Shown here: piece after piece, positions 270-55,937 of the stretch
Layout: each line of letters starts with the position of its first letter
Numbering within the stretch: position 1 is the stretch's first letter
Virus record (IMG/VR): IMGVR_UViG_3300046115_000049
Location: 1-55,937 of that record
Strand: one strand, 5' to 3'
Source: a virus
Length of the DNA: 55,937 nt
The notes under the pieces: model-generated
The model's database searches: none
What the model was told of the DNA's origin: nothing
Seen by the model: the letters and a program-made list of their open reading frames with translations, nothing else
Made by a program: the position numbers and the translations under genes

Positions 270-1586
270 ATGATGACACGTAAACCGATTACCATTGTTG
301 TGGGCGGTCAATACGGCAGTGAGGCCAAGGGGGCGATTGCTGCGTACTTATGCCTAAATGAGTCCGTAGATTACGCCATCCGCACCGGCGCTACTAATGC
401 GGGTCACACCGTCGAGTATCGCGACCGCCGATACGCGATGCAGCAGCTGCCGGTAGGCTGGGTCAATCCTAAGACCGCGCTGGTCATCGGGGCAGGCGCA
501 CTTATTAACCCCGCCATCCTCGTCCGCGAGATCGACAACATCAAGGCGGCTACCGGCGTGGATCCGCGTTCGCGTATCTATATCGACCCTCGCGCCTACA
601 TCCACCGCACTATTCACGCCGCTCGTTCCGCTGAGTCCGGCCGTCATCACGGCATCGGCGCGACCGGCAAGGGCTGTAGTGAGGCGCTGATCGACCGTAT
701 CCGGCTGCGCGGCGGCGAGAATTGGACGGTCGAAGCGGCCATGGTGCGCGGGGGTACCGATGCTGAACCGTTCGCGGGCTGCAACATCGTCGATACCGAA
801 GAGATGCTCAACAACGCGGTAGATAACGGTGACAAGTTGTTACTTGAGGGATGCCAAGGTACGCTACTTGACCTAGTACTTGGTCCCTACCCCTACACTA
901 CTCACAAACAGACCACCCCGGCCCAATGGATGTCGGAAGTAGGGCTGTCTCCGGCGCTCGGGACGGACATAGTGATGGTGCTGCGCACTTTCCCCATTCG
1001 TGTTGCTGGTAATAGCGGCCCCATGGGCGCGGAGATGTCGTGGCCGCAGTTAGCGCGCCGCATTAACGGCTATCGTTCCGCTCACGCTCTTGCTTCTATC
1101 GTGCCCGACGTAGCGATTTCCGGCTTCGAGAACGCTGTACGTGAGGCGGCTAAGAAGTTCGATATGCCGATACGCGGGGATTACGGTCCGAGCGACGGCC
1201 TTGATATGCACGAGTGGAATCCGAACCTGCGTCAGCGCTACCAGCGCCCGCTATCCGAATTGCACCGCGAGGCCTTAAAGTTGTTGCCGGACGGTCTGTT
1301 CGCGTCCCTAATGAACCTATTCGAGATGACCACAGTTACACAGAAGCTGCGCCGCATAGCCAATATCACGCATTACGAGACTAGCACCGCCATTCGTCAG
1401 GTTCGTCCTCATCGCATCGCGGTCACCTTCATGAACTACGTGTTTCCGCACCTATGGCACTCGGTATCGCCGATCACCGATGCCGAATGTACGTGGCTAT
1501 ACGACAATATCGGTTCCATCACCCCGGCACCGATCTTAGCCATCAATCGCGGGCCTGCGATGAAGCATATATTGCCGGTCGCCTAG
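270..1586 (+). CDS. purZ: Adenylosuccinate synthetase family protein (PurA-like), probably PurZ (2-aminoadenine pathway)
   Basis: 438 aa. PurA motifs occur in the expected order: VVGGQYGSEAKG (compare PurA GTQWGDEGKGK), TNAGHT, GIGATGKG, LLEGCQGTLLDLVLGPYPYTT (compare [21 protein letters not shown]) and RTFPIRVAG. The P-loop Asp is replaced by Ser, and the gene sits in a phage next to HD, MazG-like and PolA genes. Confidence 0.7.
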   Translation: MMTRKPITIVVGGQYGSEAKGAIAAYLCLNESVDYAIRTGATNAGHTVEYRDRRYAMQQLPVGWVNPKTALVIGAGALINPAILVREIDNIKAATGVDPRSRIYIDPRAYIHRTIHAARSAESGRHHGIGATGKGCSEALIDRIRLRGGENWTVEAAMVRGGTDAEPFAGCNIVDTEEMLNNAVDNGDKLLLEGCQGTLLDLVLGPYPYTTHKQTTPAQWMSEVGLSPALGTDIVMVLRTFPIRVAGNSGPMGAEMSWPQLARRINGYRSAHALASIVPDVAISGFENAVREAAKKFDMPIRGDYGPSDGLDMHEWNPNLRQRYQRPLSELHREALKLLPDGLFASLMNLFEMTTVTQKLRRIANITHYETSTAIRQVRPHRIAVTFMNYVFPHLWHSVSPITDAECTWLYDNIGSITPAPILAINRGPAMKHILPVA

Positions 1587-1613
1587 GCATCGAGTTACAA
1601 TTGGGCGGCGCGA

Positions 1614-2339
1614 ATGATCATTATAGACGATAGGGCCGGGTCAGATCGGCTAATGCTATATCCGGCACTGTCGGGGGTAGCTGAGTTGTCACGACTAGAA
1701 TTCGGCGACGCCGCGTTCGCGGGTAACGGACCAGATGGGCCGATACTCGTAGGCGTGGAGGTCAAGTCGATCTTCGACCTGATTAGCTCGATGAACACGG
1801 GTAGGTTGCAGGGGACGCAAATTCCCGGCCTGCTTGCGAACTACGACGAAAGCTGGCTCCTCTACTACGGCGCATACCGCCCCGGTACGGACGGACACCT
1901 TGAGGTGCGTCGCCGGGGACAGTGGCGACGGCACCGGCTAGGCACCCGCGACGTGCCGTACGGCTACGTCGAGGCATTCTTGCTGGACCTAGTAGCGGTG
2001 GGCGTCCACGTGAAACGCGTGTACGACGAAGGCGAAGCGGTCGCGTGGTTGATGTGCGCGTATCGGTGGTGGTCGAAGCCGTGGGAGAAGCATCACGGAT
2101 TGCGCGCATTCGATAAGTCAAAGTCGGGGCCATCGCTGCTACCCGATATAGATGATGACGTTAGATTCCGCGCGATGGTAGCGAAGGAGCTACCGGGACT
2201 GGGATTCGAACGAGCGGTCGCCGCTGCGCGACACTTTCCATCGGTAAGCGCCATGGTGAACGCGAGTGTGGAGGACTGGTCGCACGTAAAAGGGGTAGGG
2301 AAGGTGATCGCAAAGGCCGTACACTCGGCCGTAAGGTAG
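1614..2339 (+). CDS. ERCC4/Mus81-type structure-specific nuclease with a C-terminal helix-hairpin-helix
   Basis: 241 aa. It shows the pattern IIIDDR ... GDAAF ... VEVKSIFDLISS..GRL.GQ (a PD-(D/E)XK / ERKxxxD-like core) and a C-terminal VKGVGKVIAKAV HhH motif. Confidence 0.6.
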   Translation: MIIIDDRAGSDRLMLYPALSGVAELSRLEFGDAAFAGNGPDGPILVGVEVKSIFDLISSMNTGRLQGTQIPGLLANYDESWLLYYGAYRPGTDGHLEVRRRGQWRRHRLGTRDVPYGYVEAFLLDLVAVGVHVKRVYDEGEAVAWLMCAYRWWSKPWEKHHGLRAFDKSKSGPSLLPDIDDDVRFRAMVAKELPGLGFERAVAAARHFPSVSAMVNASVEDWSHVKGVGKVIAKAVHSAVR

Positions 2340-2343
2340 CGAT

Positions 2344-2544
2344 GTGAGGTATAGTGATCATTGTCGTAAGTACCAAACAGTGCGACGAAGCAGGTTGCGC
2401 GCAGCGGGGCGATGCACCGGATGTACGGAACTGAACGATCGCCCGAATAAGAGCGAGTGCAGCGGGTGCGCCGAGATACGAAAATTCAAGCTGGCGGCTA
2501 GAGAAATGAGGAACGATGGCGACAGACGACAAGGACAAGGATAG
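2344..2544 (+). CDS. Small basic Cys-rich (zinc-ribbon-like) protein
   Basis: 66 aa with a GTG start. It has paired cysteines (GRCTGC ... CSGC) and is Arg/Lys rich. Its 3' end overlaps the next gene start. Confidence 0.45.
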   Translation: MRYSDHCRKYQTVRRSRLRAAGRCTGCTELNDRPNKSECSGCAEIRKFKLAAREMRNDGDRRQGQG

Positions 2545-3331
2545 AGATAAAGGTAAGACTGGTGCCACTCCCGGGATGCCGGGTGATGAACACGTGTTCG
2601 GGTCAGGCGCGAAGCGATCAGAGGTGATGCCATTCTACTCGGCTATCCCAGTGGTGTCGCTCCGGCGAGTAGCGCTTCGCGCAACTGGTGCTCCAAAAGG
2701 CGGTGCACCCCTATTGGCCGAGGGGTTCAAATACGAAGGAGGTAGTCGCGGGTACGGGTACGGAAATTGGCGACGTGGCCTACCCATGGAAGACACCTTG
2801 AACCACATATACAACCATCTCGGCAAGTGGCGTACTGCCATCGAGTCGGGTAAGCCGCCCAACGATGATGATCTCGCCGCGATCGCTTGGGGCGTGCTGA
2901 TGCCGCTGATGACGTTCGAGCGCGACTATGCTGACCAGTATGCTATGCGCAATTCGCTACTGGGCGCGGGGAAGACGGCCGACGTCATCGATGCGGAGAT
3001 GCAGGAAAGATGGGGAGCTAAGCTACTAATTCACCCGCTGGCACCCGAGAAGCGGATGGGCACCGAGGGCGCGGCACTGAAAGCGGAAGACGAGCAGTGC
3101 GCGCCTCGGCTATCTGATATCGTCCCGGTTCGTCCGCTTGACTGGTGTGGGTGCACACGTACTGAGCGAGACAGGAACCGCGCTAGTATTCCCGCCAATC
3201 GTCGCATCGTGGAACAGGACGCCGGGGGCAATCTTCGCACTGCTGCTACGAACTGTGAAGACTGCATCGGGACAGGCAGGCTGTACCTCAAGCCGCCGGT
3301 TAGTGGAGGAGATGATGAACGACAACACTAG
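2516..3331 (+). CDS. Hypothetical protein with a DUF5664-like / dATP-dGTP diphosphohydrolase N-terminal-type domain
   Basis: 271 aa with SD gaggaa. The block GSGAKRSEVMPFY..IPVVSLRRVA..GYGYGNWRRGLP..LNHIYNHL..ESGKPP.DDDLAAIAWGVLM resembles the phage domain pattern K..L.P...L..VA....KY...NW..G......RH......ESG..HL. This pattern is recalled from memory and was not searched. The C-terminus is Cys-rich. Confidence 0.4.
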   Translation: MATDDKDKDRDKGKTGATPGMPGDEHVFGSGAKRSEVMPFYSAIPVVSLRRVALRATGAPKGGAPLLAEGFKYEGGSRGYGYGNWRRGLPMEDTLNHIYNHLGKWRTAIESGKPPNDDDLAAIAWGVLMPLMTFERDYADQYAMRNSLLGAGKTADVIDAEMQERWGAKLLIHPLAPEKRMGTEGAALKAEDEQCAPRLSDIVPVRPLDWCGCTRTERDRNRASIPANRRIVEQDAGGNLRTAATNCEDCIGTGRLYLKPPVSGGDDERQH

Positions 3332-3638
3332 AGACGATGATGCCTACTGGCCGATAAATGCGATACCGGATCCCGAGCGACAGGAAGGCGAGACGCATGC
3401 CGAATCGCCGGATCTCGAAGTGATGATGGAACTAACCAAGATGCTCCAGCTGACCTGTACGACTCAGCCTGTGGAGATTAGTCGCGCTACCCAATGCGCG
3501 GCACTCGCGGTAGCGTTGTTCCAGCAGGTCAATGGTCGCATGCCGAATGACCTGAACCACCTCGTCAGCATTATCTCCACGCTGACCGCTACGTCTATCG
3601 AGTTAGGCGACATCAGGCCCGACGATGCCCCCGAGTAA
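3312..3638 (+). CDS. Hypothetical acidic protein
   Basis: ATG at 3312 is preceded by ggagga. It is the in-frame part of ORF 3138-3638 that does not overlap the upstream gene. 108 aa. Confidence 0.5.
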   Translation: MMNDNTRDDDAYWPINAIPDPERQEGETHAESPDLEVMMELTKMLQLTCTTQPVEISRATQCAALAVALFQQVNGRMPNDLNHLVSIISTLTATSIELGDIRPDDAPE

Positions 3639-3888
3639 CATCGCCGTATTCCGCGACGAGAACGGACACGGACTCATGTTCGTAGTTCACGGTGGGCACC
3701 CCTCTTATGGGCCGTGGGTATGTTGCGCGTGTCACTCCGTCATCCGTGCTCTAGACGAGGTACGGATACATGTGGTCAAAATGCGCCCAGTGCACAATAA
3801 GACGTGGTGCAACGTCGTGAGTAGCAGTGATGTGGAGTTCCTGCTAGATATAGGGATTGTGGCGGAGATGCCATGGCCGAAATCGTAG
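3625..3888 (+). CDS. Hypothetical protein
   Basis: 87-aa ORF that overlaps both neighbours by a few codons (operon-style packing). Confidence 0.45.
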   Translation: MPPSNIAVFRDENGHGLMFVVHGGHPSYGPWVCCACHSVIRALDEVRIHVVKMRPVHNKTWCNVVSSSDVEFLLDIGIVAEMPWPKS

Positions 3889-6533
3889 TACTCGGGCGCG
3901 GTCGCGTACCTAACGACGTCGTGATCCTCGGCGAGGGTCCCGGCGAGAGCGAGGCACGTCGAGGGCAACCGTTCGTAGGTCGTGCCGGTAGTGAACTAGA
4001 TAATTATCTCGCGATTGCGGGTGGGGCTTCGTCGCGCTCGTACTACGTTACTAACATCAACAAGACATACGTGGAGGGTAATCCCGACCCTACCCCCGCG
4101 CTAATAGAACGGTGGACCCCCCACCTCCTCGACGAATTGAAGCGTGTAAACCCTCGTTTCATTATCGCCGCTGGCCTCCACGCCACCCGGTGGCTCCTTG
4201 GGGACTGGACTACCATGGAGCTTGTGCACGGAATTCCTCACCGCAGTGACCGCGTACCGGGCGCGGTCGTACTCCCGTGCCACCATCCCGCAGCAGGCTT
4301 CTACGATGACGAGGCACGGGCGCTGTGTATGTACGACTTCCGCGTTGCCGTAGCGGCGATAAAGGGCAAGATGAAGAATCTTGCTCCCCCGGTAGATGAG
4401 TTTGAGGGGCAGGAAGAGTATTACGACGTCACCGGGCTGCAGACCGTCCACGTGCTACGCGAGGCGCGTAAGTCGGGGCTTACAGTCATCTCGCTCGACA
4501 CGGAAGGAATCCCGGGCGAGGAGTGGTCCATCCAGTTCTCGCTCGTTCCCGGCACCGGGTATGTGCTCCGCTGCCAGCACGTCGATTTCGTCGCTGGTAT
4601 CAACGCGATCGTCCAGTTTTGTCACTACCCCGAAGTCGTAGTGGTGATGCAGAACTCCATGTACGATCTGGAGATGTGTCGCGGCATGGGTGCGGACCTG
4701 TTCGACGTCCGCCTATATGATACCCGCTATTCGGCTTACGCGATGAGGCTCGAGCCGCAAGCGTTGAAGCCACTTCTCTATCGCTGGTGCGGCATGAGGC
4801 AGGCGTCGTACGAGGATACGGTCGGGCCAGCCGGGCTAGCTAAACAGCTCGACTATCTCGACCGCGTGGCCATGATGGAGTGGCCTGTACCCGAAATGCG
4901 GATCGAGTACAAGAATGACGGGACGTTCCATCCTTACACGCCTCAACCAGTTACGAAGAGGGCGCTGGCCATACTTAACGACTACTACTCCGGGAAATTG
5001 GACAAGGACGGCGATCGTACTGACCCGCTTGCGCGTTGGAAGAAGGTGGACACGATACAGCGCCGCATGGTCGAGGCGATGATAGGGCGGATGCCGATAG
5101 GGACGTTGGCTGATATTCCCCTGAAGGAGGCTATTCACTATGCCGCCCGCGACGCTGATGGTACTCTGCGGTTATATTACCGCCAGCTTGGCGCTAACAA
5201 GGCCCAAGGACTCGTATCCCTAGTACAGGATGGTAATGGCGTACTTCCTGTGTTCGAGGAGATGCAGTCTACTGGGATGCGCCCTAAACGCGACTACTGC
5301 GTCGCTAAACAGGAGGAGATGACCGTCTACATGAACAAGGTCGGCGCCCGCATCTCCGTAAAGTACTACGGTGGGCAGCCGTTCAACCCCAACTCGCCCG
5401 ATAAGGTCGCAGCCTTGATGAGGCGCAGGGGACTGGTGGGCGAGAAGCGCAGCAAGATTACCAGGAAGATGTCTACCGGTAAGAAGTCGATAGAGCACTT
5501 GCGCTACTCCGACGACGCGATGAAGGACGTCATCGACTGGCGTGAGCACCAGAAGATGCGGGATTCGTTCTACGGGCCAATCGTGGAGCGGATAGATGAC
5601 GCGGTTGCGGCGGGGGCGAACCCGGCTACGTTCCGCATCCGCACCAAGATTAACCCCTACAAGGTCGTCAGTCGCCGAATCAGCAGCAGTGATCCTAACC
5701 TTACCGCCATCCCCGTCCGCAATGAGCTAGGAACGGAAGTGCGTGACGGGTTCGAGGCGGAGGAGGGATGTGAACTCGGCTCGTGGGACCTGAGTCAAAT
5801 CGAGATGCGCTACATGGCGCACGTCTCGCGCGATCCTCTACTTGTTAAGTTCTTCGGCGATCCTAAACTAGACGTCCACTGCGAGACTGCCGCTCGCATA
5901 TTCGGGCTCAAGATTAACGATAAGGCCGATAATAAAGCGGAGCGATACGCCAATATCGACGAGATGGAGCACCGCTACCCGTCTAAACGCGCAGGATTCG
6001 GCATCATCACGAACATACAGGGGATGGGACTACTTGACCAGTTACGTATGTTCGGCTGCAAGGGCTGGACCGAAGATCGCTGCGACGAGCTTATTGATAA
6101 CTGGCTCGGTGTATACAAAGGCGTCAAGGTGTTCATGGACGAATCGAAGCGCGAGGCGCAGCAGTTCGGGGTGATACGGGATGCATGGGGTATGCCGCGC
6201 TATCTCCCCGGTGTGTGGTCCCCGGATGCCAAGGTCCGCGCCGAAGCCGAGAGGGCAGCGTCGTCCATGAGGATTCAGGGCGGCGCACAGGGTATGATCC
6301 AGAAGTCGATGATCTGGCTCAAGCCGTACGTCCGCGCCATGCAACAAGCCGGACTTCGCGTACGCTGGGTGCTGCAGATCCACGACGAGATCATCATGGA
6401 GTTTCAAGAGGACCTGTGGGATACGATCAACCCACTCATCATTGAGGGTCTTACCGAGCACAGTCTCAAGCTTATCGTCCCTGTTAAGGCGTCGGGTTCG
6501 CACGCCAAGACGTGGGGTAAATTGAAAGGATAA
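3873..6533 (+). CDS. polA: Family-A DNA polymerase with a 3'-5' exonuclease and an N-terminal uracil-DNA-glycosylase-like (family 4 type) domain
   Basis: 886 aa. UDG-like motifs: GEGPGESEARRGQPFVGRAGSEL and HHPAA. Exonuclease motifs: ISLDTEG, NSMYDLEM, YAARDAD. Pol A motifs: DLSQIEMRYMAH (A), RYPSKRAGFGIITNIQG (B), LQIHDEII (C). Confidence 0.85.
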   Translation: MAEIVVLGRGRVPNDVVILGEGPGESEARRGQPFVGRAGSELDNYLAIAGGASSRSYYVTNINKTYVEGNPDPTPALIERWTPHLLDELKRVNPRFIIAAGLHATRWLLGDWTTMELVHGIPHRSDRVPGAVVLPCHHPAAGFYDDEARALCMYDFRVAVAAIKGKMKNLAPPVDEFEGQEEYYDVTGLQTVHVLREARKSGLTVISLDTEGIPGEEWSIQFSLVPGTGYVLRCQHVDFVAGINAIVQFCHYPEVVVVMQNSMYDLEMCRGMGADLFDVRLYDTRYSAYAMRLEPQALKPLLYRWCGMRQASYEDTVGPAGLAKQLDYLDRVAMMEWPVPEMRIEYKNDGTFHPYTPQPVTKRALAILNDYYSGKLDKDGDRTDPLARWKKVDTIQRRMVEAMIGRMPIGTLADIPLKEAIHYAARDADGTLRLYYRQLGANKAQGLVSLVQDGNGVLPVFEEMQSTGMRPKRDYCVAKQEEMTVYMNKVGARISVKYYGGQPFNPNSPDKVAALMRRRGLVGEKRSKITRKMSTGKKSIEHLRYSDDAMKDVIDWREHQKMRDSFYGPIVERIDDAVAAGANPATFRIRTKINPYKVVSRRISSSDPNLTAIPVRNELGTEVRDGFEAEEGCELGSWDLSQIEMRYMAHVSRDPLLVKFFGDPKLDVHCETAARIFGLKINDKADNKAERYANIDEMEHRYPSKRAGFGIITNIQGMGLLDQLRMFGCKGWTEDRCDELIDNWLGVYKGVKVFMDESKREAQQFGVIRDAWGMPRYLPGVWSPDAKVRAEAERAASSMRIQGGAQGMIQKSMIWLKPYVRAMQQAGLRVRWVLQIHDEIIMEFQEDLWDTINPLIIEGLTEHSLKLIVPVKASGSHAKTWGKLKG

Positions 6534-6538
6534 CCGCG

Positions 6539-7345
6539 ATGTGGCCATTCGAACGACGACGTACTAAACCGATGGGATCGGCCGAGTGGTGGAAGGCCCC
6601 CGGGGAAGAGGCAGCTAGAACCATGCCTCCTATTATCAATAAGGAAGTAGATGAACGTATAGCCGACATGGACACCGCGCCGTTACGATTTAAGCTTCGC
6701 GAAATGGAGCAGGACGGCACTCTCAAGGACGGCGTACTACGCATGAAGCCACCGCCTCAGTACTTTCCCGGCACTATCAGCGACCCGGGTCCCGTACCCG
6801 AGGTACCACGCGGGGTACATGTAGCCGGGTTAGACGCGTTAATTCGTTTAGGTCGTAACATCGACAAACCGGATACAGACACAGTTAAGGTCCGCATTCC
6901 GCCGCGCTTCAATGATATGGAGGACCCCCTTAGGTGCATCAAGGAACTCAACAAGGAGTTCGCCGATACGTTTAAATCTGCTCCCCCTGTGCGCGAGGTG
7001 AATCTAGGCCAGCCGCCTCCGCCGCCACTCCATTCGCTTTCGACCGTTCACGCCGAACTCGCTAACATCATCGTCGTCCTAACCGACCTTAAAGGAGATA
7101 CCGCCGATGTCACCGCAGCCCTTGAAGAAATCCGTCAAGCCTTCACCATCTTCGCCGACTTCCGCGAAGTCATCACCCGTGCATGGGGTCGTGAAATCGA
7201 CTTCCGCGCAGCCGAGCGCCAAGTCCGAGCGCGCCGTCGCAAAGGCAAAGGCGGATCGCGACCGCGAGTACGAGTCAAAGTCCGTCCCCGTAGAAGAGTT
7301 TCCCGAACTCGTCGAAGCCGGAATCCCCGAACTCGCCGTCCGTAG
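6539..7345 (+). CDS. Hypothetical protein; the 3' end is uncertain because coding signal switches frame near 7200
   Basis: ATG lies 9 nt after aaagga. Codon third positions look coding up to about 7215. After that the frame becomes CGA/AGA rich (RARRRKGKGGSRPRVRV...), while the frame of ORF 7107-7613 becomes coding-like. Confidence 0.5.
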   Translation: MWPFERRRTKPMGSAEWWKAPGEEAARTMPPIINKEVDERIADMDTAPLRFKLREMEQDGTLKDGVLRMKPPPQYFPGTISDPGPVPEVPRGVHVAGLDALIRLGRNIDKPDTDTVKVRIPPRFNDMEDPLRCIKELNKEFADTFKSAPPVREVNLGQPPPPPLHSLSTVHAELANIIVVLTDLKGDTADVTAALEEIRQAFTIFADFREVITRAWGREIDFRAAERQVRARRRKGKGGSRPRVRVKVRPRRRVSRTRRSRNPRTRRP

Positions 7346-7613
7346 TCGCGAACTCGCCGTCATCATCGCTGAGGCAGAGGAGGAGCGCAAGGCCATCAAT
7401 GCTGAGATTAAGTCCGCCATGATCGAGGCGGGTGCCGAGTCGATCAAGTCGGAAGAGGATGACTGGTGTGCCGTTCGCGCAGAGGGGCACGGACCAGCTA
7501 AGATTAGTCCGGAGCTGCTCCTCAAGAACGGCGTCTCGATGAAGGTGATCGAGCGCTCGACCGAGCCGGGCGGCACATACGAGTACGTTCAGGTCCGCAA
7601 GTTAACGAGTTAA
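7107..7613 (+). CDS. Hypothetical coiled-coil protein; the start is uncertain (ATG 7107, or GTG 7179 / 7191)
   Basis: The C-terminal two-thirds (KSERAVAKAKADRDREYESK...ELAVIIAEAEEERKAINAEIKSAMIEAG...) have good coding character. The N-terminal part overlaps ORF 6539-7345. Confidence 0.55.
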   Translation: MSPQPLKKSVKPSPSSPTSAKSSPVHGVVKSTSAQPSAKSERAVAKAKADRDREYESKSVPVEEFPELVEAGIPELAVRSRELAVIIAEAEEERKAINAEIKSAMIEAGAESIKSEEDDWCAVRAEGHGPAKISPELLLKNGVSMKVIERSTEPGGTYEYVQVRKLTS

Positions 7614-7624
7614 CCGAGGATACC

Positions 7625-8281
7625 ATGGCTGATACTTCCGATCCCCTCATCTCCTGTACCAGCGGCATGGACGACAATGCCGCCTCTCGTATGAACGATA
7701 CCTTGGCGCTCTCGCACGTGCCGCGATGGTGCATCGTTCCTCACTTTCGCCCGCAATCCGTGGCGGACCACACCTTCCGCGTTCTCGTCATCGTGCGGGA
7801 GCTAGCTCATATGGTCGGAGTGCCACTCACGATGGACGATTTCTTGGCTATCCTCACTCACGATAGTGCTGAGTCCAAGTCCGGCGACATTTCTTCCCCG
7901 TTCAAGCGGGCGCTGCTCCGGTCAGACAGGGATACGTCCGTCGCCGGTGCCATCACGACCGCCGAGCTGGAGGCGTGTGACTGGTTAAATTACGAGCCCG
8001 TCATGGAGTACGCGTCTACCGGTCCTGTCCCTCGTGCGGGGGACGTGTTTAAAGCCGCCGATCTTATCGAGGCGTATACCTTCATCTCTACCTACGGCGT
8101 CGGCCGTCATGCCGCGTTCGTCGCAGATAACATGATGACCAACGCCATCATGGAAATTCATCCGCCTACATTACAGACGGCGGCGCTCACGGCCATTCGT
8201 AACATCAATAGTGATAGGGGGCGGCTATGGGACGGGCAAGTAGTGGCGCGTGTCACGACGGGTCGAGGGCGACGCAGCTAG
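7625..8281 (+). CDS. HD-domain phosphohydrolase (YfbR / 5'-deoxynucleotidase-like); candidate DatZ-type dATPase
   Basis: 218 aa. HD-superfamily ligands are present in HVPRW...SVADHTFRV and ILTHDSAESKSGDISSP. Confidence 0.65.
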   Translation: MADTSDPLISCTSGMDDNAASRMNDTLALSHVPRWCIVPHFRPQSVADHTFRVLVIVRELAHMVGVPLTMDDFLAILTHDSAESKSGDISSPFKRALLRSDRDTSVAGAITTAELEACDWLNYEPVMEYASTGPVPRAGDVFKAADLIEAYTFISTYGVGRHAAFVADNMMTNAIMEIHPPTLQTAALTAIRNINSDRGRLWDGQVVARVTTGRGRRS

Positions 8282-43171: not shown

Positions 43172-43855
43172 ATGCACTGCGCAACGTATCTCGAACAAGC
43201 ACTGAACTACGCGCAGCGACGGCATATCATCGCCGTCGCTGCGCGTAAGCTGCGCTACGCGATTAGGCGTAGACCGTTCGACGCCATCGCGTGCATCGGC
43301 ACCTCGGGGTTACTTATCGCCCCGAGTGTTGCGGACCGGTTGAAAGTGAACTTGGTGGTAGTCCGTAAGGAGAAAGACGCAGGCTGGCAGAACCACAGTG
43401 ATTATCACGTGGAGGGGCCGGTACTCGTCAATCGATTCGTGTTCCTTGATGATCAGGTGTCGAGCGGACGAACATTGACACGCGTTCTGAAGAAAGTACG
43501 CGTCACGTATGGTGCGTGCGCGCAATTCTATGGGGCGTATTGCTACAATTCGCTCTATGGGAAGTTACATCGGCCGACCGTCGTTCGAACGTGGCTAAAT
43601 TCGTTGCGCTCGGTTGACATTGCTAAAGATGGCTACATCAGCATCAACGAGTATGATGTTGAGTGGCCTGAATCGCAAGCCCCGAGTGGGCACGTTGAGC
43701 CTATTGACAGCCGGGCACCGTCTGTGGTCCAATCGGGCGAAGGTGCGGACCGCATTCCGGCTGCGATCGTGGACCCATTGACTGGGATAGCGGAACGACT
43801 AATGCCGGAATACAGGTTCGAGATGGTGGACTGCTGGGGACCGCCACTGGAGTAA
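43172..43855 (+). CDS. Type I phosphoribosyltransferase-fold protein (APRT-like core) with a ~90-aa C-terminal extension
   Basis: The PRPP-binding-type motif is RFVFLDDQVSSGRTL. Upstream is FDAIACIGTSGLLIAPSVADRLKVNLVVVRKE (compare the APRT G..G..fg..lA..L.....iRK pattern). Confidence 0.55.
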   Translation: MHCATYLEQALNYAQRRHIIAVAARKLRYAIRRRPFDAIACIGTSGLLIAPSVADRLKVNLVVVRKEKDAGWQNHSDYHVEGPVLVNRFVFLDDQVSSGRTLTRVLKKVRVTYGACAQFYGAYCYNSLYGKLHRPTVVRTWLNSLRSVDIAKDGYISINEYDVEWPESQAPSGHVEPIDSRAPSVVQSGEGADRIPAAIVDPLTGIAERLMPEYRFEMVDCWGPPLE

Positions 43856-51801: not shown

Positions 51802-52041
51802 GTGGACCGCCGCAGGTTCCTAGGTGCGCTGGCGACGTTCGCGGTCGGCGCGGCACTGGACCCGGAGCTACTGGTCTGGAAGCCGGGTGCGAAGACGATA
51901 TTCCTACCATCAATAGTTGCGTTTTCTCAGTCCGACATGGATAAGGCTATCGCAGCAGTAGTAAAGGCACTAGCCGACGCTATCGATAGGGATATATACA
52001 GGCATTGGGCGTTGGCCGCAGCGGGGCAACGATGGAACTAG
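51802..52041 (+). CDS. Mini-protein with a Tat signal-like N-terminus, paralog of 51457-51801
   Basis: GTG falls directly after the upstream stop. It begins VDRRRFLGALATFAVGAAL, followed by DPELLVWKPGAKTIFLPS. 79 aa. Confidence 0.55.
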   Translation: MDRRRFLGALATFAVGAALDPELLVWKPGAKTIFLPSIVAFSQSDMDKAIAAVVKALADAIDRDIYRHWALAAAGQRWN

Positions 52042-52787
52042 TCCGCCAAGGAATTCACGAACTTCTTCCCATGAACCGGACTGGGGATGAGAATCGCCAT
52101 ATCTCCACCATCATACGGTCGTTGTGCTTGAAACTCGGCCACTTCGAGGACGAGGATAGTTCCTCGATGACCGACGATGCCAAGTCGGTACGTCAGACGC
52201 GATGGGAACTAGGGTCGGCATTCGAAGAGGCCGTCCGTCACGGGCTGGCCCGTCGCTATTCGCAGGACGAGCCCGACAAGTACATGGTCATCGGCGAACT
52301 TGAAGACGATGGACTTATTGGCTCACCAGATTTAGCCGACCTGACCGAACCGGCCGTTCACGAGATCAAGCTTACGTGGATGTCGAACCGGCGTGGCCCG
52401 GAGGACGAGAAGTTCTGGAAATATCTAGTCCAATTGAAGGCGTACGTGCGCATGTTCAAGCAGTCTCGCGTAGGGTATCTGCACGTGTGCTTCCTCAACG
52501 GAGATTACTCGTACCGCGGCGGCAATAGCGGTCCCGACTACCGTGTGTGGCGAGCCGAGTTTACGCAACAGGAGTTAGATGAGAATTGGCGCATGCTGCA
52601 AATCGAGGGGCGGCAGCTGCGAGAAGAGGCGAAACGTGGGAGTGATACGGCGAAGATGGAACAGCGAAATTCGTCACATGGACGCAGTAAGAATGCTGGC
52701 GTCTCTACCGGCATCATCGGTCGGCGCGGTGGTATCCGACCCGCCCTTCTTCGTGGGAATACGGCGGGACGAAGGCGGGGTAGGTAG
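52032..52787 (+). CDS. PD-(D/E)XK nuclease (YqaJ / lambda-exonuclease / Cas4-like fold)
   Basis: The motifs are GSPDLADL ... HEIKLTW ... QLKAYV (D...ExK...QxxxY). The 3' end overlaps the methyltransferase gene. Confidence 0.55.
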   Translation: MELVRQGIHELLPMNRTGDENRHISTIIRSLCLKLGHFEDEDSSSMTDDAKSVRQTRWELGSAFEEAVRHGLARRYSQDEPDKYMVIGELEDDGLIGSPDLADLTEPAVHEIKLTWMSNRRGPEDEKFWKYLVQLKAYVRMFKQSRVGYLHVCFLNGDYSYRGGNSGPDYRVWRAEFTQQELDENWRMLQIEGRQLREEAKRGSDTAKMEQRNSSHGRSKNAGVSTGIIGRRGGIRPALLRGNTAGRRRGR

Positions 52788-53424
52788 GGACCCATGGGCG
52801 CTAAAGGTAGGAGCGAATGGGGGTGGCGGGGTAATGGCGATGGCCGACTGGTACAGGCCGATAGCCGCGCAGGTCGCGCGGGTATTGCGTCCCGGTGGAG
52901 CGAGTATCGTCATGGGCGGGTCGCATTCGACAGCGGCGTGGGAGGTAGCAGTAGGGCGGTCGGGGCTACCGTGGATGGCCGAACTGACGGTACTGTGGAA
53001 CATGGGCAAGCCTCGCGTTCGCAATTTCGGGTCATTATCCATGCCGATTAAGTGGCATATCAAGCCGGGCGCGCGGCATACGTTCAACTCGGGCAGCGTT
53101 CGCTCGATCTACTCGAATGTGATCGTCGCTACCAAGGTTCCGGTGCACGACCGCGTTCATATCGCACAGAAACCCGTCGAGCTAACGAATTTTCTAATAA
53201 GTCTATTGACGGAGCGAGACGATCTGATCGTGGACCCGTTCTGTGGGAGCGGCTCGACCCTCGTCAGCGCAGCCATATGCGGGCGACCGTGGCTCGGATG
53301 TGACACAGATAAGACGCAGTGCGATATAGCCGCGACTCGCACGATGCGGCACGAATTGGAGGAAGCGGAATTGCGGCCGCTGCATCTGTGGGTAAACGGG
53401 CGACTACAGGAGGTATCGGCATGA
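52636..53424 (+). CDS. DNA methyltransferase, beta-class amino-MTase (N6-adenine or N4-cytosine); start uncertain (52579-52642)
   Basis: Motif IV (VVSDPPFF) precedes motif I (VDPFCGSGSTLV). The N-terminus EIRHMDAVRMLASLPASSV is typical of the family. Confidence 0.75.
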   Translation: MGVIRRRWNSEIRHMDAVRMLASLPASSVGAVVSDPPFFVGIRRDEGGVGRDPWALKVGANGGGGVMAMADWYRPIAAQVARVLRPGGASIVMGGSHSTAAWEVAVGRSGLPWMAELTVLWNMGKPRVRNFGSLSMPIKWHIKPGARHTFNSGSVRSIYSNVIVATKVPVHDRVHIAQKPVELTNFLISLLTERDDLIVDPFCGSGSTLVSAAICGRPWLGCDTDKTQCDIAATRTMRHELEEAELRPLHLWVNGRLQEVSA

Positions 53425-53865: not shown

Positions 53866-54675
53866 ATGGCGATCATACGAAGAGGCGTTGTAGCGCGGCC
53901 CACGGTAAGTAGGTCATCTAACGGGTGGGAGGATGCCCCTACCGAGATTACTCGCCGCGTCGTGTTCATGGACATCTACGGCGATACGGGAACCGGGCGA
54001 ACGTCTCTCGCTCTCACCGCCCCTGGCCCTATCGGCCTCGCTCATACGGCTGAGAAGATCGACGGTATCGTCCAGAAGTACACCAAGAAGAAGAAGGTGA
54101 TCCGTACCATCAATTTCGGTGGCGCGTATACCGGCACTCCACAGGAGATTGGTGCCAAGGCCGCACCAGTGTGGAACAAGATGTACGCCCTGTGGACGCA
54201 GGCCATGGGTGATTGGGCCAAGTCACTGGTCATGGACACGGCGTACGAGGGCTGGGAGATGATACGGCTGGCGCGGTTCGGGACAGTCAAGCCACAGGGG
54301 CGCGTCGATAACATGTACGGCCCGGTCAATGCGGAGTGGCGATCGCTGTTCAAGCCATTTCGTATGCAAGAGACGACCAACGTTATTACCATCCATACAG
54401 TCAAGGAGGAGTACGTCGAGAAGCCCAGCAAGACTAGAGGGGTTACCGAGTCCGTTCGTACCGGGCGGCTGGTTCACGCCGGGATGAAGGAGATGAGATA
54501 TATGGCGGACGTCGTAGTCCGTATGACCCGCGATCCAGATTACACCGTCGTCGCGACCATCGAGAAGGGCTGGTTCAACCCTGACGTGATGGGTATGGAG
54601 TTTCGTGGCGACGATGTTAATTTCGCCTTCATCATGGCGACGATCACTGACACCAATGAGAAGGAGTGGCGGTAG
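53866..54675 (+). CDS. Sak4-like / AAA_24 RecA-fold ATPase (recombination mediator)
   Basis: Walker A-like is IYGDTGTGRTSLALTAPGP and Walker B-like is SLVMDTAYEGW. Its size and its context next to a nuclease fit the call. Confidence 0.55.
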   Translation: MAIIRRGVVARPTVSRSSNGWEDAPTEITRRVVFMDIYGDTGTGRTSLALTAPGPIGLAHTAEKIDGIVQKYTKKKKVIRTINFGGAYTGTPQEIGAKAAPVWNKMYALWTQAMGDWAKSLVMDTAYEGWEMIRLARFGTVKPQGRVDNMYGPVNAEWRSLFKPFRMQETTNVITIHTVKEEYVEKPSKTRGVTESVRTGRLVHAGMKEMRYMADVVVRMTRDPDYTVVATIEKGWFNPDVMGMEFRGDDVNFAFIMATITDTNEKEWR

Positions 54676-54677
54676 CG

Positions 54678-55022
54678 ATGTTGTATGTTACCAGAGATGA
54701 GCTATTGGCGGTATTTAATCCCGCTATATTCGCCAATGACTTAGTAATGCACGACGTATGGAGATGTATCGAGAATTCGCTATCGGCGCACCCTCGCGGC
54801 GTGCCCACCGACCCTCTACGACAGGCGGCGCTGGTCGCGGAGGAGGCAGGGGAAGTAGTGAAAGCGGCGCTCGATGCTACCCGTGGAAATTTACAGAATT
54901 GGCAGGAAGAAGGTGCACTGGGGGACATGGAAGAGGAGTTAGCTCAGTGCGCGGCCATGGCAATCCTAGTATTAGTCGCTATTCAGTGCAGGAGGCAACA
55001 TGGAACGACTACAGATTCCTAA
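54678..55022 (+). CDS. MazG-like all-alpha NTP pyrophosphohydrolase; candidate MazZ
   Basis: ATG lies after aaggag. LVAEEAGEVVKAAL ... MEEELAQCAAMAILVL parallels the MazG EE.GE ... EE.gDvl..L..la pattern, with Gln in place of the final Asp. Confidence 0.5.
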   Translation: MLYVTRDELLAVFNPAIFANDLVMHDVWRCIENSLSAHPRGVPTDPLRQAALVAEEAGEVVKAALDATRGNLQNWQEEGALGDMEEELAQCAAMAILVLVAIQCRRQHGTTTDS

Positions 55023-55937
55023 CGGCATCAACATTACGCTGTCGCCTGACGGCAGGTATGCGTCAGTCGGCAACGATCGTTCACAGCTCGTGGAGCTGGC
55101 GTACGATTCGACCGATATTCGCGTGATCGAGCACCGCGTCATCGGTGAATCCGCTCCCTCTCCTGTCCAATCGTATTTCGGTCAGTGGCTCGACAATCGG
55201 AAACTGGTATTCTATCAGGATGGCTATGACGGTATCCCCGGTAGACGCCGATTCCGCGTTTACGATACGATTACCGCTGGAGTTAGTGACCTGATGGTAG
55301 CGCCGGGAGTCGATCTACTCGCCGTCCGTGACAATCAGGTATTTGAGACGCACGTCGGTATGTATCGCCATGTAACATGTGAGAGATGGCAATTCTGGTG
55401 CAACCACGCGAACAATGTGCTGCACGCGCGGAGCCCAACCGGCGTAGACTATATGAAAGCGGTTACCGAGCAGCCGGGAATGGTAGATGGAATCCGTCAT
55501 CTCATCGCTGCCCCAGGCGGCAATGCGCTGTTCTTCGACGGCTACCATATCCAAGTGTGGCACCCGCAGACCGGCCTGAACAGGTCGGTGTCGATCGTCA
55601 CTCGCAGTGACCGATACCCGTGGGGCGAGGGGCTCGGATGGTGCTGGCGGCGACCCGCTGATGGGACCGCATGGCTGGCCACGTGGGTGACGGACCAGCC
55701 GTGGGGACGAACGTTCATACTCATCCGTCCTATGGGCGCGGGGCTGTGCATCTGGCAGGAGTTCGGAGGAGTAGATTGGCTGCACGCCGCGACGATGGAC
55801 CACGACCGGGTAGTAGTGGCCGGATCATACAACGCGGTGTCTTACGCCACAATAGTAGATACGCGTATGGGACTGGGGATATTCGCCCCGTCCACGCCTA
55901 GCTCCGGACCCGGACCCGGACCTGTGGAGCCGCCCCC
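55000..55937 (+). CDS. Wrap-around CDS (357 aa in total; continues as 1-263): beta-propeller-like protein with a 15-Pro tract and an amphipathic C-terminal tail
   Basis: ATG lies 5 nt after aggagg. I translated it by hand with no stop up to the window end, and the frame is continuous with ORF 6-263 after collapsing the 127-nt overlap. The N-terminus is MERLQIPNGINITLSPDGRY. It is absent from the ORF track because it has no stop inside the window. Confidence 0.75.
   Translation, partial: MERLQIPNGINITLSPDGRYASVGNDRSQLVELAYDSTDIRVIEHRVIGESAPSPVQSYFGQWLDNRKLVFYQDGYDGIPGRRRFRVYDTITAGVSDLMVAPGVDLLAVRDNQVFETHVGMYRHVTCERWQFWCNHANNVLHARSPTGVDYMKAVTEQPGMVDGIRHLIAAPGGNALFFDGYHIQVWHPQTGLNRSVSIVTRSDRYPWGEGLGWCWRRPADGTAWLATWVTDQPWGRTFILIRPMGAGLCIWQEFGGVDWLHAATMDHDRVVVAGSYNAVSYATIVDTRMGLGIFAPSTPSSGPGPGPVEPP
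55811..55937. repeat. Terminal direct repeat (second copy of nt 1-127)
   Basis: Identical sequence read at both window ends. Confidence 0.95.

Follow-up and report, generated by a model that had tools for sequence, protein, structure and literature searches.

The stretch of DNA analysed here, called the window in what follows, is the virus record IMGVR_UViG_3300046115_000049 over positions 1-55,937, and our subject is a group of plus-strand genes on either side of its first base that may together replace adenine by 2-aminoadenine (Z) in the genome of an uncultured, P22-like phage. Since the first and last 127 bases are identical (an exact terminal overlap of 1-127 with 55811-55937), the window is a complete circular assembly with a unique genome of 55,810 bp. 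The left border of the module is a conserved gene for an AAA_24 ATPase (53866-54675; PF13479). It is followed by a gene for a small all-alpha, MazG-superfamily-like protein of 118 aa (54666-55022), a candidate dNTP pyrophosphohydrolase recognised from a homolog profile and its invariant residues, and by a 357-aa open reading frame (ORF) whose first part runs from 55000 to 55937 and which, after reconstruction of the junction, ends at 263. Next come a long-form PurZ-like protein of 438 aa, a predicted succino-amino-deoxyadenylate synthase (270-1586), an ERCC4/XPF-type nuclease with a C-terminal (HhH)2 domain (1614-2339), a DUF5664-like protein of the dATP/dGTP diphosphohydrolase N-domain family (2516-3331), a putative replicative polymerase of 886 aa joining a family 4-like UDG domain, a 3'-5' exonuclease and PolA (3873-6533), and an HD protein of 218 aa that resembles the dATP triphosphohydrolase DatZ (7625-8281). 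The five ORFs on which the original prediction of a Z-DNA gene set had been built are thus all in place, and its remark that the MazG-like gene lies one gene upstream of the PurA-like gene holds because the assembly is circular: the 357-aa ORF, which carries a 15-proline run, is the only one between them. This ORF has no family match in Pfam and no tblastn counterpart in the related viral loci L004-L010.

The 438-aa protein belongs to the Adenylsucc_synt family (PF00709, E 1.5e-40), where it scores 140 bits as against 198 bits (E 5e-58) on PHROG 1211, '2-aminooxy adenylosuccinate synthetase'; the JGI annotation calls it adenylosuccinate synthase. Its P-loop (G16-S17-E18-A-K20-G21) reads GGQYGSEAKG, where E. 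coli PurA has GTQWGDEGKG, which bears out the difference between GSEAKG and GDEGKG pointed out in the original prediction. Ser17, which stands for Asp13 of PurA, is invariant in 46 of 46 aligned clade members, as are the catalytic His of the NAGH motif (NAGHT, 43-47), the TTVT motif at 354-357 (G-A-T-T in E. coli PurA), F387, N389 and Y390 of the F-M-N-Y stretch, and G428-P429. At the P-loop position Ser has been found in 100% of 147 phage sequences and Asp in 99% of PurA (PMC12884076). Seven residues that discriminate PurZ (S14, P233, W252, T262, F295, N297 and Y298 in PhiVC8 numbering), drawn from the S-2L and PhiVC8 structures and a dZ-enrichment study (PMC8342488; bioRxiv 10.1101/2025.10.22.683976), were matched in 16-17 of 17 long-clade sequences. 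The ATP-type base pocket of PurZ is built from the aromatic F295, from Y298 and from N297/Q308, the last of these replacing the guanine-binding Asp (PMC8342488), and the long clade has the same pocket, with F387 in 17/17, N389 in 17/17 and Y390 in 16/17 sequences. The guanine-specifying Asp of the TKLD motif is Asn in the window (TFMNY), while PurZ0, PurA and the cellular homologs keep Asp. Val245, the equivalent of the V241 2'-OH gate of S-2L, is also invariant, although PurA has Val there too. Taken together, the residue-level tests favour PurZ chemistry, with a predicted conversion of dGMP, Asp and NTP to dSMP.

What sets the protein apart from all short forms in the alignments is an insertion of ~65-97 residues in the long clade, between the SW..L motif and the aspartate loop; in the window it is helical, ~85 residues long and spans about residues 258-347. 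The AlphaFold2 model (pLDDT 92, pTM 0.91) folds it confidently as a five-helix subdomain, and it is conserved, with its own invariant residues N266 and S329 and near-invariant W316 and R321. In Foldseek the remainder of the model superposes on P. horikoshii PurA, PurZ0 (7vf6) and PurZ (6fm1/7odx) with TM scores, normalised to the target, of 0.80-0.89, and of 0.80-0.82 for PurZ0 and PurZ. In a neighbour-joining tree of 95 sequences, a distance method with P. horikoshii and E. coli PurA as the only outgroups, the Ser-type sequences split from these outgroups in 98/100 bootstraps and the long clade was monophyletic in 100/100, its branching position within the Ser-type group being unresolved. By this placement the PurA-like protein appears to group with PurZ and PurZ0, outside the PurA of P. 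horikoshii and E. coli, and by its sequence it is no close relative of any known PurZ. A tblastn search of 50,697 phage records gave only alignments to PurZ/PurZ0 whose identity was at most ~35% and which were for the most part confined to the first ~260 residues, and no record among them covered at least 80% of the protein, so that the long clade is absent from these cultured phages. It is plentiful in metagenomes: the best 120 relatives listed are full-length proteins of 407-468 aa at 48-60% identity, often on phage-size contigs of 40-70 kb, and they represent at least 120 distinct protein clusters.

Compared with the PurZ of PhiVC8, S-2L and SH-Ab 15497 (6FM1, 7ODX), the window protein shares the Ser P-loop, TTVT, the W252 and P233 positions and the F-x-N-Y pocket (F295/N297/Y298 in PhiVC8), and its predicted partners (DatZ, DUF5664 and MazG-like proteins) are like those of the PurZ phages. 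It differs in having only ~21% identity in structural alignment, in reading GSEAKG rather than GSTGKG, in lacking the PurZ-specific insertion after the IRVA strand (S-2L A242-W250; PhiVC8 Y244 region) and in the extra ~85-aa helical subdomain. PurZ0, known from Gordonia phage Archimedes (7VF6) and from Wayne- and Ghobes-type phages, gives the best structural superposition among the Z enzymes (root-mean-square deviation 2.9 A, TM normalised to target 0.82), and its GGQ[FY]GSEAKG and IRVAGNSG motifs are nearly identical to those of the window, whose second motif reads IRVAGNSGP. Its NTP base motif keeps the PurA-type Asp (SMADQ), however, where the window has Asn, and PurZ0 reportedly uses GTP, according to Tong et al. 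2023. The window protein thus mixes a P-loop and IRVA strand of the PurZ0 type with a base pocket of the PurZ (ATP) type. The gene sets differ as well: PurZ0 phages carry DutZ, DmtZ and a Wayne-like DpoZ and no DatZ (PMC12884076), whereas the window has DatZ and is without Dut or NDT. A search of the window for homologs of Dut, NDT, MazZ-1, MazZ-2, DUF550, PrimPol, DutZ and DmtZ detected none. A long PurZ subfamily that combines motifs of PurZ0 and PurZ and escapes the curated PurZ model thus appears from these comparisons to be new: a large uncultured clade of ~430-aa proteins with a helical insertion of ~85 residues, previously undescribed.

A scan of one genome per GTDB species yielded 80 loci (L013-L092) with Ser-type PurA homologs, which are mostly short and keep the GTP-type Asp. 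Their neighbours in 53 of these loci are a dCTP-deaminase-like gene and/or one for a ~670-aa RNase_H_2-DUF429-AAA_18 protein. There is no DatZ, MazZ or DpoZ within 10 kb. As cellular Ser-type homologs lack the Z partners, Ser for Asp alone is not diagnostic of Z-DNA synthesis, and we rejected it as sufficient proof of PurZ function. All 53 of these loci point to an apparent widespread cellular operon of three genes (e.g., L030 7959-11858, L042 8019-11164, L060 7961-12113), encoding the ~670-aa RNase_H_2 (PF13482)-DUF429-AAA_18 protein, a short Ser-type (GSEGKG) PurZ0-like synthetase that keeps the GTP-type Asp, and the dCTP-deaminase-like protein (PF22769). Its hosts are Proteobacteria, Nitrospira, Dehalococcoidia, Actinobacteria, Cyanobacteria and one Methanosarcinales metagenome-assembled genome (MAG). 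PADLOC gave weak PDC-S44 matches only, and we found no description of the operon in the Z-DNA literature examined; it could be a nucleotide-pool or defence-type module. The short proteins nearest to the long clade lie on cellular-looking MAG contigs (L015, L016, L017 and L020; 337 aa, with QFLNY). A Ham1/ITPase-like gene (PF01725) follows the short relative in three of these (L015 4053-4664, L016 10996-11613, L020 8069-8683), contigs assigned to Cyanobacteriota, Gammaproteobacteria and Minisyncoccia, and in the Saccharibacteria locus L017 the gene of the short relative adjoins a transketolase gene.

The strongest single argument for Z comes from the HD protein at 7625-8281. It had been described as a phosphohydrolase of the YfbR type, and it does match HD_3 and YfbR-like models (26.4 bits, cut-off 25.9), yet its best and only significant PDB match is S-2L DatZ (6zpa, E 5e-11), and it matches PHROG 7076, 'dATP triphosphohydrolase', at 1e-15. 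Its identity to the three validated DatZ (S-2L, PhiVC8, SH-Ab) is 30-31%. In S-2L DatZ the critical residues are the metal ligands H34, H66, D67 and D119, the phosphate contacts R19, K81 and K116, the sugar gate W20, the 2-amino excluder I22 and the base-stacking P79, together with the conserved Q29, A32 and G74 (PMC8065100). A MAFFT alignment with the three validated enzymes shows the window protein to be identical at 13 of these 13 positions. The residues for catalysis, phosphate binding and specificity are thus common to both, and the proteins differ elsewhere, since the window protein is extended by ~25 residues at its N-terminus and by ~30 at its C-terminus and has an insertion between K81 and K116. 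By these residues the protein is to be read as a DatZ, predicted to be specific for dATP. If dATP is destroyed while 2-amino purines are spared, the phage needs a substitute for A.

The module is also kept in diverged relatives. The core order of the long PurZ, the ERCC4-(HhH)2 nuclease, UDG-PolA and DatZ recurs in the viral contigs L004, L006, L007 and L009 and in the metagenomic contigs L095, L096 and L097, with datZ ~6 kb downstream of the long purZ in the window and in all seven; two further loci (L093, L094) have the same order up to UDG-PolA, where they end before the position of datZ. The four genes are therefore syntenic in every relative with enough flanking DNA, although PurZ identity to the window is only 39-60% in the relatives with the core order. 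The ERCC4 gene stands immediately downstream of the long purZ in L004-L007 and L009; in the window it is matched through HHH_2 and HHH_5, and PF02732 ERCC4 matches its orthologs in L096 and L097. Where the contig permits, a DUF5664-like gene lies between ERCC4 and UDG-PolA, and the upstream order is a small MazG-like ORF, AAA_24 and a helicase, the AAA_24 gene being conserved upstream in L004-L006, L009, L010, L095 and L096.

A source of dGMP may be provided by either or both of two proteins. The one at 2516-3331 reaches 23.8 bits (E 4e-5) on PF18909 dGTP_diPhyd_N, which for the single sequence is below the threshold of 27. Its 51-67% identical relatives, on the same contigs as the long PurZ, carry PF18909 in precomputed Pfam annotation, and the family profile aligns with the N-domain of the SH-Ab 15497 DUF5664-DUF550 protein at a probability of 84% (hhalign, E 7.5e-6), so that the DUF5664-like assignment made for this gene has stood and the homology is, on profile evidence, real. 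The family has the motif GGS.KYGYGNW..GLP.EDT.NH and a conserved domain at ~residues 25-140, followed by a variable Cys-containing tail. The JGI call for the gene is 181 aa from the internal Met91, which would halve this domain, and the longer ORF is for that reason taken to be the real gene. Both the DUF5664-DUF550 dATP/dGTP pyrophosphohydrolase of SH-Ab 15497 and the DUF5664 protein of Arthrobacter phage Wayne have been characterised, and the latter, a stand-alone domain, converts dATP, dGTP and dUTP to dNMPs (PMC12884076).

The MazG-like protein is much less certain. Read from GTG at 54666 it has 118 aa, and from ATG at 54678 it has 114 aa. As a single sequence it has no match in Pfam, NCBIfam or PDB, and a word-indexed homolog search returned the protein alone, so that an exhaustive HMMER search was needed; this gave 100 remote homologs in which E59, E60, G62, E63 and E91 are invariant (an EE.GE...E signature). 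The homolog profile matches PDB weakly (B. subtilis YpjD 2gta, E 0.002; pyrophosphohydrolase 5ie9, E 0.006). The AlphaFold2 model (pLDDT 90) is all-helical with three long helices, and Foldseek found nothing significant for it (E at least 0.35), with MazG, DCTPP1 and HisE among the weak matches only; the monomer as modelled forms an open helical hairpin and probably depends on its oligomer. To call it a MazZ is not justified: S-2L MazZ was reached with an hhalign probability of 19% (E 0.0012) in the EExGE region only, the probabilities for the MazZ-2 of PhiVC8 (p26) and the DUF550 of SH-Ab were 0.2% and 0.1%, and BLASTP gave an E of 0.28. It is best described, from its profile, as a putative generic member of the MazG superfamily. 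The gene context supports a role for it, since its orthologs lie directly upstream of the long purZ in L004, L005, L009 and L010, and L006 has it joined with a DUF5664-like domain in a single protein of 306 aa directly upstream of purZ. This fusion of a DUF5664-like with an all-alpha NTP-PPase-like domain mirrors the architectural logic of SH-Ab 15497; in the window the two are separate genes ~3.3 kb apart across the junction, and DUF550 is not the partner at the C-terminal side. L004 (186-752), L009 (9273-10001) and L010 (9366-9869) have, shortly before the MazG-like gene, an extra ORF with the motif KN.DYG...DPF.NF...GILVRLSDKLARLRT...D..NYAVL, by eye like DUF1599/DUF5664-type all-alpha nucleotide-binding domains, which is absent at that position in the window.

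The family-A polymerase expected at 3873-6533 is there (DNA_pol_A, E 6e-67), preceded by a UDG domain (E 5e-18; NCBIfam UDG_fam4 88 bits) and a faint 3'-5' exonuclease match, and exonuclease motif I and polymerase motifs A and C are intact. As a candidate DpoZ it had to be rejected, with 108 bits on NCBIfam DpoZ NF038380 (cut-off 500; 249 bits on the Pol I model), 23% identity to PhiVC8 DpoZ and a position outside both DpoZ clades; its best PDB match is Klenow, and among cultured phages no homolog covers at least 80% of it. Motif B reads R-YPS-K-RAG-F-G-II-T (5973-6023, PolA residues 701-717), and the pattern R-x3-K-x3-F-G-x2-T, with Thr at the B4 position (E. coli Y766), is found in the window and in 7/7 diverged relatives of the lineage. 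N4 gp39 has Tyr at B4 and both DpoZ classes have Phe, which is unique to the two DpoZ clusters among 19 PolA clusters (PMC10201439). Like the DpoZ classes, then, the window polymerase is a family-A enzyme with a 3'-5' exonuclease beside purZ that lacks the canonical B4 Tyr, and the three purZ-linked PolA lineages (F, F and T) have all lost this tyrosine. The N-terminal family-4 UDG-like domain is shared with the N4-type and SPO1-type UDG-PolA proteins, and the UDG, exonuclease and PolA chain of ~800-900 aa matches that of the UDG-PolA fusions (the N4-like cluster #17 and unclassified ones, PMC10201439). All motifs compared with N4 gp39 differ, and membership in cluster #17 is unlikely. The UDG motifs GE[GR]PG and HPA[AS], lost in N4, are kept in most lineage members; the window domain (3873-4370) has GEGPG and HHPAAG and, as read from the sequence, lacks cysteines that could hold the Fe-S cluster usual in family 4. 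Independent support for a tie to Z comes from a report that the Pfam domains UDG and PolA are enriched on contigs shown by experiment to be dZ-enriched, a link described there as undefined (bioRxiv 10.1101/2025.10.22.683976). By its motifs and scores the polymerase would be a third type linked to purZ, and a new one.

From these genes the following pathway can be envisioned. The DUF5664-like protein, the MazG-like protein, or both would hydrolyse dGTP (and dATP) to monophosphates and so supply dGMP, a step suggested by the characterised DUF5664 and DUF5664-DUF550 enzymes and by the domain fusion in the relative. The long PurZ would then join dGMP and aspartate to N6-succino-2-amino-dAMP, using ATP rather than GTP, as its Ser17, Thr354, W258 and F387/N389/Y390 pocket would have it. 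In known Z-phages host PurB and host kinases complete dZTP synthesis, and here, too, they would turn the succino product into dZTP with no phage gene required. DatZ, in which all catalytic residues and the specificity residues W20 and I22 are conserved, would remove dATP and spare dZTP and dGTP, and the UDG-exonuclease-PolA polymerase would copy the genome from a dATP-free pool. On this basis the phage probably makes ZTGC DNA, with 2-aminoadenine for A, as the original prediction had proposed, and we put the probability of this at roughly 0.8. The case rests on no single feature and comes from three things taken together, namely pocket residues of the PurZ type, a partner that is DatZ-like throughout and a synteny conserved in diverged relatives; the enzymatic activities and the Z in the virion are what we infer from it.

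Several findings weigh against it. Our evidence consists of gene presence, family relationships, residue conservation and synteny, and such data cannot show Z chemically. The closest solved structure by sequence is a true PurA, that of P. horikoshii (7.5e-42), ahead of PurZ0 (4e-34), PhiVC8 PurZ (7e-31) and S-2L PurZ (1.5e-17). The 438-aa protein reaches 205 bits on the NCBIfam PurZ model NF038379 (cut-off 300), against 325-421 for validated PurZ and PurZ0; the alignment covers profile positions 1-262 only, because the insertion breaks it, and the archaeal short-PurA model gives a level score of 204 bits (cut-off 368). The placement among PurZ that had been expected is accordingly borne out by the tree and not by the profile. 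The insertion alone has no match in Pfam, none of the characterised MazZ types is specifically linked to the MazG-like protein, and the polymerase does not belong to DpoZ. Short PurA homologs of the Ser type occur widely on the chromosomes of bacteria with no DatZ, MazZ or DpoZ nearby, and the short relative in L016 passes the short-PurA equivalog cut-off (375 against 368 bits). One could therefore see in the long protein an auxiliary adenylosuccinate synthetase that takes IMP to AMP, beside an HD protein that is a generic YfbR-type dNMP nucleotidase, in a phage with ordinary ATGC DNA: besides the PurA structure and the two profiles, neither of which was passed, the JGI label and the cellular contexts of the nearest short relatives would fit. 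We consider this quite improbable. Asp13, conserved in ~99% of PurA (PMC12884076), is Ser in every clade member, the guanine-specifying Asp is Asn, and the residues at the T262 and W252 positions are of the PurZ type; the HD protein keeps the DatZ-specific W20, I22, P79, K81 and K116 beyond the HD core, and a destroyer of dATP beside a booster of AMP would be metabolically senseless.

Another explanation accepts that dZTP is made and holds either that substitution is partial, since with a polymerase other than DpoZ the incorporation of Z is not enforced, or that the PurZ-like protein and DatZ are a weapon that depletes dATP and dGTP pools against the host or competitors. The position of the polymerase in neither DpoZ clade speaks for it, as does the failure to detect MazZ-1, MazZ-2, DUF550, DutZ or DmtZ in the window, and a conserved N6/N4 amino-methyltransferase (52579-53424; L093, L095) would sit oddly with a complete loss of A. 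That enzyme could be N4-C specific or act on Z, however, and S-2L is fully converted from A to Z with a non-selective PrimPol because DatZ removes dATP (PMC8065100; PMC10201439). Moreover, datZ or an equivalent accompanies purZ in all known genomes that have it, and those that were tested are Z-substituted, which leaves partial substitution or a weapon an unlikely outcome. It might also be argued that the long PurZ uses another acceptor, such as GMP, XMP or another 6-oxopurine nucleotide, and makes a different modified purine, the specificity being conferred by the insertion. A conserved, folded block of 85-90 residues does stand immediately before the aspartate/substrate loop TTVT, the protein scores equally far from PurZ and archaeal PurA on the hidden Markov models, and the cellular Ser-type homologs sit in operons of unknown chemistry. 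Against this, all known residues of the PurZ base pocket that contact dGMP are the same, its partner DatZ belongs specifically to the Z pathway, and Val245 is invariant, though PurA has it as well; a different acceptor therefore seems to us very improbable.

The remainder of the genome is that of a P22-like phage. A minus-strand block at 8.5-37.3 kb holds the P22-like head and tail module and an endolysin, the head genes including portal (phrog_156), major head protein (phrog_283), head closure Hc3 and large terminase. Cultured phages have no near-identical DNA, no tRNAs were found in the window, and the close matches in genome bins are only 2-7 kb MAG contigs (L013, L014, L019) that are unreliable for binning, so that we rejected a host assignment from them. 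The methyltransferase at 52579-53424 (PHROG 67; motif SDPPFF) has conserved counterparts in L093 and L095. It is a curiosity where adenine is predicted to be missing from the genome and could be N4-C specific, act on Z, or target host DNA; its ORF overlaps that at 52005-52787 by 209 nt, and the true start is probably internal. A phosphoribosyltransferase-domain protein is encoded at 43172-43855 (PF00156, E 1e-10; PHROG 2068). Its sole PDB match is marginal (the OPRT domain of UMP synthase, E 0.0024); a part in the salvage of a purine base such as adenine or the Z base is conceivable. The ORFs at 6539-7345 and 7107-7613 overlap by ~240 nt, and the Arg/Pro-rich C-terminal tail of the first resembles an out-of-frame read of the second, so that the gene boundaries are uncertain here and a frameshift may be involved. 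Over the whole window, 6-mer palindromes of G and C only are depleted twofold (summed, 150 observed against 301 expected; GCCGGC 1 vs 27.5, CCGCGG 6 vs 39, GGCGCC 9 vs 37, GGGCCC 0 vs 5), and those containing A/T only mildly (631 against 781). This fits selection against sites left unprotected by Z. The same depletion is expected just as much of phages with high-GC hosts in general, and we rejected it as evidence for Z.

The features singled out as new in the original prediction, namely the podovirus-like background and the extra genes embedded in the cluster, are not the new ones. PhiVC8 itself is podovirus-like, with HTVC010P/VP2-like head and tail-tubular genes, and Podoviridae were already among the phages with the Z cluster (Czernecki 2021, PMC8342488). 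The actual novelty, which that prediction had not noticed, lies in the PurZ insertion of ~85 aa, in the mixture of PurZ0-like and PurZ-like motifs, and in a UDG-PolA with Thr at B4. Because curated models miss the long PurZ, such phages are annotated with an 'adenylosuccinate synthase', and surveys of the prevalence of Z-DNA would undercount them.

Two configurations of Z phages are known, one with PurZ, DatZ, MazZ or DUF550 and a PhiVC8-like DpoZ or PrimPol, and the other with PurZ0, DutZ, DmtZ and a Wayne-like DpoZ. The lineage described here, abundant and entirely uncultured, mixes features of both. It is tempting to go further and to see in it a third, independently assembled Z-DNA system, with a distinct PurZ subfamily and a UDG-exonuclease-PolA that became adapted to Z by convergence (a 'DpoZ-3', with Thr at B4 and the UDG motifs kept), a proposal that we regard as tentative and rather doubtful at present. 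The long PurZ would in that case combine a PurZ0-like core and a PurZ-like ATP pocket with a new helical subdomain that may bind a partner or regulate the enzyme, and the glycosylase-like domain may give the polymerase a second mode of editing against A or U. If so, it would be as a shared adaptation that the three PurZ-linked PolA lineages have all lost their tyrosine at B4. To enzymology and to work on synthetic ZTGC DNA the lineage contributes a polymerase scaffold and a PurZ architecture that are both new, and it adds a third data point on the features of polymerases that co-evolve with Z.

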